DNA from: Octopus vulgaris | Taxonomy: Eukaryota | Direction: 5' to 3' | NCBI GenBank assembly: GCA_951406725.2 | Contig: OX597820.1 | Span: 121,210,001-121,274,000 of the forward strand | DNA: 64,000 nt | Shown: piece after piece, positions 9,281-63,040 of the stretch | Position numbering within the stretch: position 1 is the first letter of the stretch | How the letters are laid out: each line of letters opens with the position of its first letter | Made by a program: the position numbers and the translations under genes | Notes under the pieces: model-generated | Told to the model about the DNA's origin: nothing | Databases searched by the model: none | What the model saw: only the letters and a program-made list of their open reading frames with translations

Positions 9281-9931
9281 TCCAAAAGGGTGTTGACCTA
9301 ATATATCGTCAGCTGAGCTAAGTTATTGACCGGAGAAAGGGAACACGTAGTCTTCTCTGAAGACCAGGCAACAAACCGTTTTATGGTTTATTGAATGAAA
9401 TACACCCATATTCAACGGAAACGACGTAGTTAATTCTTATTTAACTCAGAGGCAGGGATCATAAAATGCTAATTTATTTCAGTTTTATTTCATTCACGAT
9501 GTAGCTCTACATATCTACATAGATATGTACATAAACATATATATACAGAGGAATACATTGGTTCATATATATGTGTGTGTGTGTGTGTGTGTGTGTGTAT
9601 ACTGTAATCATCACTGAGTGTGTTAGAAACACCTACGTTGCTATCTCTTCTTTCTAACAATATAGTTGTTTCTAACACCCTGGTCACATTTAGTTTTCCT
9701 TTTTAATGAAACATTGCAAATTGCTGTCTACTTAATTATATGTGAGTGTGTGTGTGTGTGTATGCATTCACACACAAATATCAGATGTACATCAATATGT
9801 ATTTACAAAATACACACATATCGTTATATATATATATATATGTATGTATGTATATCTGTATGTATGTATATCCTGGAAAAAGGATATATGTATTTGCATT
9901 GGGACCCCTTTCATCGAAAACCGGTGATTGT

Positions 9932-9976
9932 CGTGCGCTGATGACGGGTCAATACCTAGAAACTTGGGTCCGTGCG
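9932..9976 (+). ncRNA. Minimal type I hammerhead ribozyme motif, partly decayed
   Basis: cgtgcg CTGATGA cgggt caat accta GAAAC ttgg GTC cgtgcg; stem I is 6 bp with 2 GU pairs; stem II has a closing mismatch. Confidence 0.6.
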
Positions 9977-10219
9977 TATCACGTAGGTTGACGATGGGAA
10001 GGATGGCTTCCCTTTGCAAATACCGATAGGGCACAGAAAGTGTGTCAATAGCTAGCTGGAGAAGATGTTCTCCTGGGGCTACAAGCTACAGTAACATTCA
10101 CCCTTAGTGGTTATCCATTATTTAGATGGCAAATATACTTCACACACACACGCGTCGGTGGGTGTGTGTGTGTGTATGCGTGTGTGTGTGTGCGTGTGTG
10201 TGTAGGAGTGTATGCATAT

Positions 10220-10615
10220 CTCTTTTTATTCTTTGACATGTTTCAATCATTTGACTGCGTCCATGCTGGAGCACCGCCTTTAGTCGAACAAATCAAATCC
10301 ACGACTTAATCTCTGTAAGCCTAGTACTTATTTTATCGGTCTCTTTTTGCCGAACCGAAACGTAAACGCACCAACATCGATTGCCAAGCGATGGTGGTGG
10401 TGGAGAGGACAAACACACACAATTACACACACGCACATATATATATATATATATATATATGACGGGCTTCTTCCAGTTTCCGTCTACCAAATATATTCAA
10501 GGCTTTGGTCGGCCCGAGGCTATAGTAGAAGATATTTGCCCAAGGTACTCAGTGGGACTGAAACCGGAACCATGTGGTTGGTAAGCAAGCTACTTACCAC
10601 ACAGCCACGCCTGCG
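10220..10615 (-). mobile_element. SINE family B
   Basis: Head ggcgtggctgtgtggtaag..ggttccggtttcagtccc; cttgggcaa core; internal microsatellite; tail ggcggtgctccagcatgg. Confidence 0.9.
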
Positions 10616-11659
10616 GCTATATTATATATCTACATATAATATATAATATAATATATAATATAATCCATATTACAAATTTTTTTTCTCTCCGTTACAGAAA
10701 GGAATAAAACAAAGCAACTTGAAGCATTTATTTGATGAAGCATTCTTTCATTTAACCATCCTTGAAATTAATTGGTTAATTAACATTTGTATACAACTGT
10801 TGTTTTGATCAAGTTCTATATCTCCAGTATGAATCAGAAAACTATAGATTAGGAGATTATTAACTTAAAGGATTATAGAATCATCAGGAAAAGGAAACGT
10901 AGGGAGCTACATATTGGGATTTCTTTCTGGTATTATTGTTGTCAAACCGTTGGTATTTAAAGCGGTGGGAAAATGTAGTAGTAGTAGTAGTAGCAGCAGC
11001 AGTAGTAGTTGTAGTAGTAAATTATTAATTTGCAATTTATATAAACGTGAAAATGTTATCAGAACAATTATTTCTGTTTCTTGTACCCGTGAATGCAGTC
11101 ACGTGTCAGGCAATTCCAACTTCAACAATATTCTTCGAATCTCTTAATTGTTGGATGAAGGCATTTAATTCAAGCCGTTGTCAGTGATGGGTTTGTTACC
11201 TATTCTCTCGTACATTTCTCAATCTATCCATCTCCAAACCTCGTGTGTTTGCCGCCATCATCGTGCAGTTTACTAGCTCGCCATTGTTCGGATAGAAATT
11301 TAAGTACCAATAAAACCTCTTAATTGACTGGTTCTTTGTTTCGATGGTAACAGGAAGATGCATGTTAATAATGGCACGTTGCTCTTTGCATCATTATGCA
11401 TTTTCTGATTAAATTTTATATTTTGTTGCATAAGAGAACACGTGCGACCTAGTATATAGTGACACCATTCAGATTCCAAATTTTGTTTTCACATAAAATG
11501 TGATTCAAGAGGTAAATTTTGTCATGGGTCTCTTTCGCAGCGGAACATCACCACACGTCCGAATGCATTCGAATGAGCCAAATATAAATTCACACGAATG
11601 TATTTTATTCAACACTGCTTTTGCGACGATATTTTATAACATCTTCACGAAACTTTACG

Positions 11660-11990
11660 AAAGCGACGAGCTGGCAGAATCGTTAGCACGCCGGGCAAAA
11701 TTCTTGGCTGCATTTCATCCGTGTTTACGTTCTGAGTTCAAATTCTACCGCGGTCTACTTTGCTATTCATACCTTGTGGTGGCGCAATGGCCCAGTGGTT
11801 AGGGCAGCGGACTCGTGGTCGGAGGATCGCAGTTTCGATTCCCAGACCAGGCGTTGTGTGTGTTTATTGAGCGAAAACTCCTAAAAGCTCCACGAGGCTC
11901 CGGCAGAGGGTGGTGGCAACCCCTGTTGTACTCCAATGGCGGTGCCCCAGCATGGCCACATCTAGTGAGCTGAAACTAGATAAATAAATA
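11660..11990 (+). mobile_element. Composite: family A head, family C (tRNA-Arg-like) 5' half, and a LINE-type 3' tail
   Basis: gcgacgagctggcagaatcgttagcacg.. (11662); ggcgcaatggcccagtggttagggcagcggactcg.. (11781); ggcggtgccccagcatggcc..gctgaaac (11938). Confidence 0.75.
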
Positions 11991-12185
11991 TTAGCAAAGG
12001 TAACGTATGATGTTGTAATGAGAATAAACTCCTTCATATTGAATTAGGAATAACAGATCTTTTACCCATATTTGGCGGAGCAAAAGCATGCAGAAAGTCC
12101 GCCAACAGAATTTTATCCGGACATTATTTCCGCAGTGGAAGGTCTCTGCACATCCGATGAACGGGAACGTATTGATAATGATGTT

Positions 12186-12322
12186 ACACACACACACACA
12201 CACACACACACACACACACACACACACACACACACACACACACACACACACACACACACACACACACACACACACACACACACACACACACACACACACA
12301 CACACACACACACACACACACA
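12186..12322. repeat. (CA)n microsatellite
   Basis: Pure CA run of ~135 bp. Confidence 0.98.
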
Positions 12323-61124: not shown

Positions 61125-61690
61125 GCTCGGATCCAGTGACCCCAAGATGACCACAAAACTGATCACTGTATTATATAAGAAATGAAGCTTACATGCTCCG
61201 CTGTATAGGTGATGTGAGTGTGAATGCACGACAGAGAGTCCATGATTTAAGAGGAAGGCTAAAAACGGCATCAGAAGTTGAATGCAAGAGAGAAGACAAC
61301 ATTGGTTTGGTTATAGATGAGGACAGGAGCATAAAGAAGTGCCGAGTTCTATTGTGGAGGATACCTGTGAAGAGGGTAGACTCAGGAAGCCGTTGGACGA
61401 AGTGGTGAGAAAGGATCATCGGACGCTAGGCCTCATTGAGGAAATGACAATGGATCGGGAAATGTGGTGACTTGCCTCTATGTGTGAAAGACACGTACAG
61501 GTTTGTCCTATCAAGTGCCGGTGCTCCATAGACGGTAAACCCAGCATAGTCTGTTAAGTGGAAACCACGTTACAGTAAAGTGTAGGAGTCTAGACAGCTC
61601 CCTGCCAGCCAGATCCATGCTAAATGGTCCAACCCATGCCAGCATGGAAAGCGGACGTCAAACGACAACGATGATGATGATGATGATGAC
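61125..61690 (+). mobile_element. RTE-clade LINE 3' fragment
   Basis: RNEAYMLRCIGDVSVNARQ..DEDRSIKKC.., RTLGLIEEMTMDREMW; tail catgccagcatggaaagcggacgtcaaacga(tga)n. Confidence 0.8.
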
Positions 61691-61747
61691 GATATATATA
61701 TATGTTTGTGTGTGTGTGTCTGTGTCTGTGCTTCTGTGTATATATAT

Positions 61748-62070
61748 AAGAATGTTTTGCATAATGAGATAAAAAAACCAAGGCTGTGTAGATATTAGAG
61801 CATTTATAGATAGAAGGTCTTACAGCTGTTTCCAGGATATTTATTAATAATATCCCTTCATCGGAGACGGTGTGAGAGGATGGTTAAGTCATAGTTAGTT
61901 TAGATGTGATACAAAATAGAGAGTGAGGTGGAGGAAAGAAAATAGATGTAAGATATGTATGGGTATTGAAGTTGTAAATCCGTTTTATAGGAACGTAACT
62001 ATGGTCTTTCTATAGCACTTATTCAGCATTACCTGACACCTTTGGGTCTCAATGACACCCTTATCTCAAC
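61748..62070 (-). mobile_element. (TA)n-embedded Penelope pLTR-like element
   Basis: TA tracts at both ends; hammerhead on the minus strand. Confidence 0.65.
61817..61868 (-). ncRNA. Minimal type I hammerhead motif (CCGAUGA variant)
   Basis: Minus: gtct CCGATGA agggatatt attaata aatatcctg GAAAC agct GTA agac; palindromic loop III (AGCU). Confidence 0.7.
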
Positions 62071-62085
62071 TATATATATATATAT

Positions 62086-62493
62086 AGGTGCAGGAGTGGC
62101 TGTGTGGTAAGAAGCTTGCTTACCAACCACATGGTTCCGGGTTCAGTCCCTCTGCGTGGCATCTTGGGCAAGTGTCTTCTACTATAGCCTCGGGGCAACC
62201 AAATCCTTGTGAGTGAATTTGGTAGATGGAAACTGAAAGAAGCTCGTCGTATATATGTATATGTATATATATATGTGTGTATGTTTGTGTGTCTGTGTTT
62301 GTCCCCCTAGCATTGCTTGACAACCGATGCTGGTGTGTTTATGTCCCCGTCACTTAGCGGTTCGGCAAAAGAGACCGATAGAATAAGTAATGGGCTTACA
62401 AAGAATAAGTCCCGGGGTCGATTTGCTCGACTAAAGGCGGTGCTCCAGCATGGCCGCAGTCAAATGACTGAAACAAGTAAAAGAGTAAAAGAA
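62086..62493 (+). mobile_element. SINE family B, full length
   Basis: aggtgcaggagtggctgtgtggtaag..gggttcagtccc..cttgggcaagtg..ggcggtgctccagcatggccgcagtcaaatgactgaaac. Confidence 0.92.
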
Positions 62494-62539
62494 TATATAT
62501 ATATATATATATACTATAAAGTGAAAGGGGTACAGTGAA

Positions 62540-63040
62540 TTTGGTGTGAAGAGTGGAATATCCAACGTTTCTGATTCAATCCTTCGTCAGTGGGGAAGAG
62601 AAAAAGACAAGAAAAAAGAAACCAGAGTTACATCCTCTCAGCTTGAAAAACTGGCTGCAAATGATAATGGACGCAGAATAACGCGGGCAGATAACGAGAA
62701 ACAGAAGTTATGGGAGAGGGCGTGCAGAAAGGAGGAGGAAAAGTCTGATGGAGAGAGTAGATGTAAGTAAATACGGGAATGTTGCAGACAGAGGAGGGAA
62801 GGATGATTAAAAAGGGTCCAAAAGAATTAAGATTAAGTGAAAGGGTGAATGGAAAAACGTTCTAACAGGTGTTAGAGATATAGTGCGAAGATCAAATATG
62901 AAACGTTGCTGCTTTTATTTCCTTGAGAAGGTGGATCCGTGGTGCAAAGCCATGCCACACACTGATAAATCTGGAATATAAGTGATTCATATTGTTGAAG
63001 TGGGTAGCGACAGGTTGACCTGGCATACGTAACATTATGC
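62540..63040 (-). mobile_element. Penelope-like retroelement 3' relic (GIY-YIG C-terminus and pLTR)
   Basis: Minus: PGQPVATHFNNMNH, then in another frame IPDLSVCGMALHHGSTFSRK*KQQRFIF; downstream cca CTGACGA aggattgaatca GAAAC gttgg at 62562-62593. Confidence 0.65.

Follow-up and report, generated by a model that had tools for sequence, protein, structure and literature searches.

What are the short inserts that lie in or near (TA)n microsatellites in this part of the Octopus vulgaris genome, and which enzymes copied them? In the window (the whole 64,000-nucleotide stretch of DNA that was analyzed), we found that these inserts are likely 3′-end stumps of several Penelope-like element (PLE) families, together with a single copy of an abundant SINE that has a tRNA head and, in its tail, a Penelope-style minimal hammerhead ribozyme (HHR) motif, and that was likely copied by Penelope enzymes. 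We give this reading a probability of about 0.65. Most of the finding (an HHR close to the 3′ end, insertion at (TA)n and an inverted 5′ copy) is already known, because these traits have been published for PLEs, including an Octopus family. The features are collected in Table 1.

Table 1. Positions and strands of the features in the window
Feature	Positions	Strand	Remarks
Degenerate SINE copy: tRNA head, (AAT)n, minimal HHR, tail	12443..12670	+	Family very abundant
tRNA-derived head	12443..12497	+	A box 12443-12453, B box 12488-12497
Loop-less minimal HHR	12580..12622	+	Broken here (12586, 12613, short deletion near 12620); intact in family majority
PLE relic: C-terminal part of the GIY-YIG region (63017-62852, with one stop and one frameshift), followed by the 3′ UTR, a degenerate loop-less HHR (62590-62567) and (TA)n	62516..63020	-	
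Two inverted HHR-bearing ends (25692-25616 minus, 26145-26221 plus) around a 316-nt middle	25577..26265	.	PLE inverted-pLTR layout
AT-rich, TA-flanked element with intact type I HHR (core 45153-45187), without inverted end	44982..45360	+	
TA-flanked element with a pyrimidine-rich stretch, then a type I HHR (61864-61821; palindromic loop 3 and a single mismatch in the core)	61749..62070	-	
Element with intact-core type I HHR (9938-9970), then structured 3′ part homologous to 14362	9895..10135	+	Weakly TA-flanked
5′-truncated relative of the 9932 element (cut downstream of the HHR) with head-to-head inverted copy missing the last ~45 nt	14362..14645	-	TA on both sides
Short third copy of the 9932/14362 3′ segment	33543..33589	-	81% over 48 nt
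Imperfect TA-flanked fold-back (~150 nt + ~100 nt), no HHR	12731..12985	.	69% arm identity over ~150 nt
Perfect 91-nt inverted repeat with 8-nt spacer (13501-13690) plus 95-nt extension, no HHR	13501..13785	.	TA on both sides

Type I HHR motifs occur in the window above chance. A type I descriptor with a perfect core matched twice (9938+ and 45153+) and had no match in 40 of 40 local shuffles. When one core mismatch was allowed, the same descriptor matched five times (shuffle mean 0.1, maximum 1), and the bare core pattern occurs 7 times in the window versus 0.63 expected. The matches gained by allowing the mismatch are 61864-, 25692- and 44474-, the last of which is probably spurious, though retained in the counts. 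HHR sites are located at 9938, 45153, 61864, 25692/26145, 12585 and 62590. The core (CUGANGA / GAAA / NUH with helices I and II) is intact at 9938 and 45153, has one mismatch each at 61864 and 25692, and is degenerate in the copies at 26145 and 62590. The motifs at 12585+ and 62567-62590(-) are degenerate and loop-less in the window (GAAACGUU-type), so the tetraloop of the original prediction does not fit them.

The same core is surrounded by five different helix sequences among these HHRs. The PLE-type traits (unpaired base before helix II, G10.1-C11.1, palindromic 15.2-16.2 or loop 3) are only partly present at 9938 and 45153. The 61864 HHR broadly has them, with an extra A before helix II, G-C, a palindromic loop and one extra base ahead of GAAAC. 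Loop-3 types differ, and several PLE families are therefore indicated. Compared with shuffles, folding is better for one of seven HHR regions (25606-25702, z -3.4) and not for the other six. Rfam called no hammerhead in its searches, including among the 150 of 287 matches listed in one of them; its microRNA and snoRNA matches in the window are microsatellite noise. Core-pattern matches at 8608, 12544, 18302, 37875 and 16050 were dropped, as their helices are absent or they lie inside a LINE ORF; the one at 12544 is altered in the majority of the 12443 family. Short-motif scans gave 0 and 0 matches in metagenomes. In viral (0, 0, 1) and prokaryotic (2) collections they recovered no host DNA, and the three loci were taken as chance, their likeness being confined to the motif (20-27 nt).

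Two features had escaped the original prediction, namely the homology of elements 9932 and 14362 and, most unusual of all, the tRNA head at 12443. A search with A and B box patterns gave four matches in the window, one of them the 12443 head, versus 0.2 per shuffle. The two boxes are 34 nt apart, and this spacing is common to the window's other SINE heads, which we take to be the Octopus tRNA SINEs OK, OR1 and OR2, reportedly described by Ohshima and Okada in 1994; unlike these, 12443 carries an HHR. Each box of the 12443 copy has one mismatch that is absent from the family majority. ARAGORN, run at its default threshold, found no tRNA in the window, and even relaxed settings did not make it call the head at 12443; Rfam gave no tRNA among the matches listed. 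The SINE is ~230 nt long with unique flanks at both ends. No T4 run is present on the sense strand of this copy, which is compatible with putative Pol III transcription. BLAST detected no relative of it among the window's other SINE copies, and scans of the window and collections found no autonomous partner sharing its tail.

Copy number was assessed for one of nine elements, the 12443 SINE, using contigs alone from four runs (of 24 listed) with three organism labels. Matching contigs were present in 4 of 4 runs (20,994, 9,592, 17,427 and 2,089). Position 12586 is T, as in the core CUGAUGA, in 95, 99, 97 and 83% of summed depth in the four runs, and the B box position 12488 is G in 96-99% of depth. 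At position 12613, G accounts for no more than 33-76% of depth, with alignments breaking at the adjoining deletion. Loose ends go on through GAAAC-GUU and reach the 3′ strand of helix I, which has 5 bp. Position 12617 varies (7-16%). The 5′ strand of helix I, the remaining CUGAUGA box and helix II exhibit no differences at the 15% listing threshold. Compensatory stem changes were not seen in this family, the only one with enough copies, and its stems are invariant. The majority HHR has an extra A before helix II, G-C and a loop-less AACGUU. A contig with 25 differences (X1, record 2) runs from the head to the HHR, and the linkage of the two is therefore not private to the window copy.

Judging from these sequence features, the 12443 family is likely a SINE of the Pol III type whose tail carries a PLE-style ribozyme motif, its transcription and self-cleavage both being putative. 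We propose more tentatively, at slightly less than even odds, that it is a Penelope-dependent SINE. Under this proposal, a tRNA-derived Pol III promoter would have been joined to a pLTR end bearing an intact minimal HHR, and would have reached very high copy in several related species via PLE RT/GIY-YIG acting in trans.

The 12443 family could instead be an ordinary LINE-mobilized tRNA SINE with a captured piece of a PLE pLTR, such that the HHR is a passenger and the LINE recognizes the last 50 nt. LINE relics are present in the window, and the 3′ end of the SINE is sharp, at 12670. Loose ends in X1, X3 and X6 open with a repeat of the terminal AAT-rich unit, which suggests that some carry a short tandem tail as in LINE-dependent SINEs. 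Loose-end consensuses at both SINE ends are AT-rich and not (TA)n (agreement ~0.5, among the 24 of 992 listed), and a TA preference is not evident in this family. Strand switches at the 5′ end of the head (4 of 15 joints listed, 69 in all) agree with twin priming, with short sides (32-47 nt) that fit either explanation. A young family would also retain the motif without selection. However, no variation in the HHR core or helices reaches the listing threshold in any of the four runs, which carry three organism labels, although it does so in loop II and at CpG sites. In addition, go-back joints, i.e., partial tandems, account for 5 of 12 table rows listed (53 in all), and the repeated unit of the recurrent ones includes the HHR. 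One recurrent joint in X3 (12670>12550) has a depth of 572 versus 6-13 for the single X3 contigs listed, and such joints suggest that some copies elsewhere are tandem. Finally, X11 loose ends extend a further ~25 nt, resembling the optional PLE tail. We regard mobilization by a LINE as the less likely reading.

Returning to the PLE stumps, the claim that the elements share no primary sequence is wrong for 9932 and 14362. Judging by their alignment, the two are homologous (score 65; shuffle maximum 42; 0 of 2000 shuffles reach 65). A twister or HDV reading of their motif was considered and dropped; Rfam gave no match. The predicted architecture of an HHR and/or fold-back ends holds in that HHRs exceed shuffles and fold-backs exist at 13501, 25577, 14362 and 12727. 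Only 25577 has both, because inverted end copies are absent from 12441, 44950 and 61748 (as they are from 9932) and no descriptor tried found an HHR in 12727, 13501 or 14362. A possible degenerate 5′ half of an HHR in 12727 (minus strand) was rejected, as it is without GAAAC.

The 25577 fold-back spans 200 nt (86%), with 26145+ as the inverted partner of 25692- (88% over 177 nt). A Hydra-type endonuclease remnant was considered by eye in its middle and rejected: it needs frameshifts, and motif regexes and protein search gave nothing. An inverted 5′-truncated copy is present at 25577 and 14362, and the arrangement is compatible with 13501 and 12727. The 61749-62070 element probably represents the truncated 3′ end of a PLE.

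The HHR-less fold-backs 12727 and 13501 might alternatively be TA-inserting MITEs, or, for 13501, an assembly fold-back, and not PLE products. Both are without an HHR, an ORF or a relative in the window, their inverted arms are flanked by TA, and the 91-nt arms of 13501 are 100% identical. By contrast, both carry a one-sided extension of ~95-100 nt ahead of the next (TA)n, and 14362, which is demonstrably related to an HHR-bearing element, shares their layout. Octopus also has listed HHR-less, (TA)n-targeting Naiads with inverted copies. We regard a non-PLE origin as fairly unlikely.

The elements were predicted to sit in or against (TA)n. TA runs do flank 12727, 13501, 14362 and 61748 on both sides, and 44950 at 31 and 8 nt, but 25577, 12441 and the relic have a run on one side only. 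For 12441 (the 12443 SINE), this is the 3′ side, and the closest left run is 1980 nt off. The element at 9932, described at the outset as less tightly flanked, adjoins a run on neither side, the nearest being 54 and 301 nt away. Of the HHR candidates, 4 of 8 have a (TA)5+ run in the 100 nt downstream, as compared with a background of 6.4% and 3 of 28 ordinary SINE 3′ ends. Among the five descriptor matches, which were picked regardless of TA, 2 of 5 are within 100 nt (p 0.04), a weak enrichment.

A GIY-YIG Penelope relic had been predicted at 62540-63040, and this was borne out by a match to the C-terminal 40-60 aa of RT + GIY-YIG proteins (phmmer E 1e-7), with no RT left. By this likeness, a PLE left its broken C-terminal endonuclease end at 62852-63017. 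The closest matching proteins are of the Neptune type, one of the PLE clades covered by Craig et al. 2021 (PMC8557442). The Neptune/Nematis CX2-5CxxC linker is present in 5 of 5 inspected relatives (CX4CXXC); the relic itself is without that region. Pfam found 0 families in the relic fragments, and tblastn with 36 proteins gave no match in the window outside the relic. The relic has no sequence in common with the other elements, and mobilization by its family, as originally proposed, is unsupported.

Processing of the elements by their ribozymes is likewise unsupported, a lone minimal HHR having shown no cleavage in vitro (Cervera and de la Pena 2014). Also unsupported is one new system of non-autonomous families, since most elements fit plain 5′-truncated PLE ends. 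In its retrozyme-like form, where HHR-excised, circularized families were all sent into (TA)n by the relic's Penelope family, this idea could draw on several unrelated HHR-bearing short elements close to TA, on the derivation of retrozymes from PLE pLTRs (bioRxiv 10.64898/2026.07.22.740005) and on the go-back joints of the SINE family, but it is very unlikely given that 0 of 9 elements are tandem arrays in the window, three have no HHR, none resembles the relic, loop-3 types point to several PLE families, a lone minimal HHR was uncleaved in vitro (PMC4209133) and Arkhipova 2013 reports no evidence of between-family cross-mobilization.

Based on published PLE biology, we suggest that a PLE RT/GIY-YIG protein would nick (TA)n or AT-rich DNA and reverse-transcribe from the 3′ end of its RNA. 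Early stops would leave stumps of 250-700 nt that keep the HHR 40-180 nt from the 3′ end (44950, 61748, relic). Template jumps or self-priming may append an inverted 5′-truncated copy (25577, 14362, probably 13501 and 12727), and truncation downstream of the HHR, or an HHR-less family as in Naiads, would yield a bare fold-back. The 12443 family combines A and B boxes, no sense T4, a conserved intact minimal HHR, a sharp 3′ end and many copies. It would be transcribed by Pol III, and its loop-less HHR would remain mostly uncut as a monomer, so that the 3′ end would survive and, with the pLTR-like tail, could serve as the cis signal for PLE protein in trans. Any cleavage would require a dimer via the AACGUU palindrome, e.g., in partial tandems.

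If the 12443 family is indeed Penelope-dependent, the SINE-LINE partnership would extend to PLEs, and a class of PLE-dependent SINEs would be added. The family would also offer a natural substrate of 230-300 nt for studying the part of the minimal HHR in PLE retrotransposition, a role called a mystery (PMC7761336); an in vitro PLE system has been named as the next task (Craig 2021, PMC8557442). With the motif preserved in a short element that has a promoter and very many copies, the minimal cis signal would be defined and core mutants could be tested directly. For the rest, the finding usefully annotates PLE debris of a kind already known.

The predicted link to PLEs holds and had already been described, by Cervera and de la Pena in 2014 and by Craig et al. 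in 2021. Metazoan PLE HHRs are minimal motifs that occur dispersed, singly or as pairs on opposite strands with 100-700 bp between them (Cervera and de la Pena 2014, PMC4209133). They share with our motifs a short helix I, an unpaired base before helix II, G10.1-C11.1 and a palindromic or absent loop 3. The accessible part of that paper describes no element with a tRNA head, and the helix II region of 25577 is unusually long (58 nt).

Octopus PLE families with a (TA)n preference include Hydra-1_Obim, Naiad_Obim and Naiad_Ovul (Craig et al. 2021, PMC8557442). The Hydra, Neptune and Naiad clades resemble our elements in their (TA)n targets, 3′-proximal HHR (Hydra clade), inverted 5′-truncated copy and optional 30-40-bp tail, and 25577 and 14362 have the layout of Craig 2021 and Arkhipova 2013, an inverted copy with or without a tail. 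By eye, the HHR and 3′ end of Hydra-1_Obim are unlike those of all elements here, and the accessible supplement of PMC8557442 contained 0 of 5 window motifs. The suggestion that this class was overlooked is unsupported, HHRs, inverted copies and (TA)n targets being already published for PLEs.

Non-LTR retrozymes are likewise non-coding, PLE-derived and presumed PLE-mobilized, and their HHR is of type I (Cervera and de la Pena 2020, PMC7229834; PMC7761336; Li et al. 2026). They differ in being tandem repeats that yield circRNAs and are said to be promoterless, whereas the window elements are monomers or inverted pairs, one family having a tRNA promoter.

We found no description of a PLE-dependent SINE in the literature searched, and the nearest precedent is schistosome Sm-alpha/Sj-alpha (PMC2770079, PMC6765202). 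These elements are also tRNA-related and SINE-like, with a Pol III promoter followed by an HHR and >10,000 copies. The Sm-alpha HHR is canonical and shown to cleave, and Sm-alpha elements are often tandem. By contrast, the 12443 family occurs in another animal group and has a loop-less, PLE-type minimal motif, a putative ribozyme, near a fixed 3′ end.

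The window is AT-rich animal DNA with many microsatellites and many copies of tRNA-headed SINEs. A descriptor for type I hammerhead ribozyme motifs (HHRs; helix I of at least 4 bp, CUGANGA, helix II, GAAAC, loop 0-6, GUH) matched two perfect cores (9938+ and 45153+), whereas each of 40 block shuffles gave none. Allowing one mismatch raised this to five matches (adding 61864-, 25692- and 44474-, of which 44474- is probably spurious) against a shuffle mean of 0.1, and the bare core pattern occurs seven times versus 0.63 expected. The motifs at 26145+ and 25692- are inverted twins. 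The window copies of the motifs at 12585+ and 62590- are degenerate and lack a loop, and no descriptor found an HHR in the elements at 12727, 13501 and 14362. Rfam scored no hammerhead in the HHR regions, nor window-wide among the 150 of 287 matches listed, and one of seven HHR regions folded better than shuffles; we counted both results against the HHR reading. Fold-backs are present at 12727 (about 150 nt, 69% identity), 13501 (91 nt, 100% identity) and 14362 (two arm segments, 84-90% identity). The original prediction described short elements bearing an HHR and/or a fold-back. The HHR excess over shuffles and the fold-backs are real, but only the element at 25577 combines the two.

TA repeats lie on both sides of 12727, 13501, 14362 and 61748, loosely also of 44950, on one side of 25577, 12441 and the Penelope relic, and on neither side of 9932. 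A (TA)5+ tract occurs within 100 nt downstream of four of eight HHR candidates, some of them chosen in the original prediction (background 6.4%, p 0.001), of two of the five descriptor matches, chosen without bias (p 0.04), and of 3/28 ordinary SINE 3′ ends. The proposed (TA)n setting may hold for the candidates as a set; enrichment is weak among the unbiased matches, and 9932 lacks TA flanks. TA adjacency is not exclusive to HHR elements, since an abundant tRNA SINE family (62086-62492 and copies) contains a (TA)n/(TG)n tract in its interior. At 40329 (minus), a further tRNA-headed SINE that has A and B boxes begins directly at a (TA)n tract.

A relic of a Penelope-like element (PLE) occupies 62516-63020 on the minus strand. 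Its segment 63017-62852 translates in frames -3 and -1 to PVATHFN and LSVCGMALHHGSTFSRK*KQQRFIFDLRTIS. A phmmer search with the relic retrieved 12 proteins (best E 1e-7), and full-length relatives of one match have RVT_1 and GIY-YIG domains. A CX4CXXC linker is present in all five full-length relatives inspected; a CX2-5CxxC-type linker is a Neptune/Nematis mark according to the available text of Craig 2021 (PMC8557442). Behind the coding part come a UTR rich in pyrimidines, the broken remains of a loop-less HHR and (TA)n. The PLE endonuclease matches bear out the predicted relic, but its proposed role as mobiliser is not established, since no sequence common to it and the other eight elements was found. 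At 25900-26030 (plus), a frameshifted remnant resembles by eye the C-terminal Cys/Asn/His motif of Hydra-clade endonucleases; a database search with it gave no support. Other features are collected in the table.

Additional repeat and coding features in the window
Feature	Position	Strand	Basis
Head-to-tail array of SINE-like units, 182-244 nt	14817-15354		
Head-to-tail array of SINE-like units, 182-244 nt	2742-3227		
Head-to-tail array of SINE-like units, 182-244 nt	49307-49678		
ORF fragment, LINE reverse transcriptase-like	19400-19780	-	by eye
ORF fragment, zinc-finger N-terminus of another non-LTR element	24912-25349	-	by eye
ORF fragment, mariner transposase-like	46518-46883	+	by eye
Third fragment of the 9932/14362 segment	33543-33589		sequence match

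The elements had been thought to share no obvious sequence, which is contradicted by 9932 and 14362. Aligning 10008-10130 with 14362 read on the minus strand gives a score of 65 (shuffle maximum 42; 0/2000 shuffles as high), and two hairpins are kept, one with a double-sided change (A-U versus C-G). The homology begins downstream of the 9932 HHR. The second arm of 14362 is an inverted copy without the last about 45 nt, an arrangement that corresponds to the "inverted 5′-truncated copy plus optional tail" layout of PLEs in the accessible parts of Craig 2021 (PMC8557442) and Arkhipova 2013. Judged by this alignment, the pair shows how a single family can yield an HHR element as well as a bare fold-back.

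The inverted arm at 14548-14645 is almost identical to the direct arm, except that both strands of two internal hairpins are missing while the loops are kept; a variant-template switch, hairpin processing or a sequencing artefact are alternative causes. A nested hairpin motif is conserved between 10040-10095 and 14467-14510 (minus). It resembles a segment close to the 5′ ends of two Naiad consensus sequences, Naiad_Adux (14/16 nt) and Naiad-3_Chem, which we regard as a lead only. The motif has no match in Rfam and is possibly an undescribed cis-acting RNA. A small element at 33460-33830 (minus), Helitron-like by eye (GC hairpin near its 3′ end), holds a 48-nt homologue of the 9932/14362 3′ sequence.

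The element at 12443 starts with an A box and a B box at 34-nt spacing, one of four such matches in the window (0.2 per shuffle). ARAGORN did not call this head as a tRNA, and the sense strand of the element has no T4 run. The element is partially present in 21 of 24 sequencing runs, under five organism labels. Contigs of four runs (X1, X3, X6 and X11) were aligned to 12330-12680 (20,994, 9,592, 17,427 and 2,089 contigs). In X1 the left flank is near single-copy, at a depth of 49 versus millions inside the element, depth being no copy number. The family majority departs from the window copy exactly at the latter's apparently broken sites. Position 12488 is G in 96-99% of the summed depth of the four runs and the loose end ahead of 12444 gives T, so both boxes are perfect in the majority. 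Position 12586 is T in 83-99% of summed depth, which restores a CUGAUGA core, 12613 is G in 33-76% of depth, and loose ends carry the sequence on past GAAAC-GUU and reach the 3′ strand of helix I (5 bp).

On these letters, the majority motif has the form of the minimal HHR in Cervera 2014 (PMC4209133): one additional base ahead of helix II, G10.1-C11.1, the AACGUU palindrome and no loop 3, as in the available text. At a 15% threshold, the four runs list no differences in the 5′ strand of helix I, in helix II or at the remaining positions of the CUGAUGA box. Variation is seen in loop II and at CpG sites (12617 in 7-16%), and the family therefore exhibits conservation without covariation. X1 record 2 covers the head through the HHR with 25 differences from the window copy, so the fusion is present in other copies. 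The family has a sharp 3′ boundary at 12670, which lies some 50 nt past the predicted cleavage site; X11 extends about 25 nt beyond this boundary, and the ends in X1, X3 and X6 may form a short tandem tail. Among the 24 of 992 rows listed, the consensuses of the loose ends are rich in AT but do not read (TA)n. Given that contigs end at microsatellites and reads resembling human ones were filtered out, these consensuses neither show nor exclude TA targeting.

We favor reading the HHR elements as PLE stumps (probability about 0.8). By published PLE biology, several PLE families most likely nick TA-rich DNA: a Neptune-like one for the relic and possibly Hydra, Poseidon or Naiad types for the other elements. 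Reverse transcription would proceed from the RNA 3′ end and stop early, sometimes adding an inverted copy. The window itself shows products of these proposed steps. In the 12443 family, a tRNA-derived head was likely fused to the end of a PLE pseudo-LTR, perhaps, to speculate, at the internal (AAT)n. Pol III transcription would likely be followed by copying in trans by a PLE protein. A monomeric minimal HHR showed no cleavage in vitro in the part of Cervera 2014 (PMC4209133) available, which would allow the SINE tail to survive; any cleavage would require a dimer.

For this dependence on a PLE we see roughly even odds. The main rival, in which a LINE mobilises the SINE and the HHR is a passenger, is rather unlikely. 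Strand switches at the head's 5′ end (4 of the 15 joints listed) fit PLE inverted copies but also LINE twin priming; go-back joints (5 of the 12 rows listed in joint table 5c, one recurrent, X3 12670>12550, depth 572) fit PLE partial tandems. At 37750-38700 (plus), right after (AAT)n(AAG)n, a non-LTR retrotransposon has left a decayed C-terminal RT region. This region has 43-55% identity to the top 24 of 30 matches, many of them RVT_1 proteins of about 1200 aa. We take this element to be R4/Dong-like, and it is a possible second microsatellite-associated driver.

The predicted multi-family Penelope system retains its PLE link, but the general system is already in print, since its traits match published ones. 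In the available text of Craig 2021 (PMC8557442), 26/27 Hydra-clade entries are listed as preferring (TA)n; most of them possess an HHR close to the 3′ end, and one has an inverted 5′ copy. The clade includes Hydra-1_Obim of Octopus bimaculoides, and two Octopus Naiads likewise prefer (TA)n. Dispersed minimal HHRs and opposite-strand pairs are on record in that of Cervera 2014 (PMC4209133). Most of the elements are further, new examples of a kind already known. Outside Repbase, Dfam, SINEBase, most subscription papers and the supplements of Cervera 2014 and a 2026 preprint (bioRxiv 10.64898/2026.07.22.740005), our literature search found neither a cephalopod tRNA-headed SINE with a PLE-type HHR nor a PLE-dependent SINE. 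[quoted passage not shown] Retrozymes differ in being tandem and, in the text available, are said to be promoterless (PMC7761336, PMC7229834 and the same preprint). The tRNA-headed SINE with a minimal HHR would be new in form; its dependence on a PLE is plausible but unproven.
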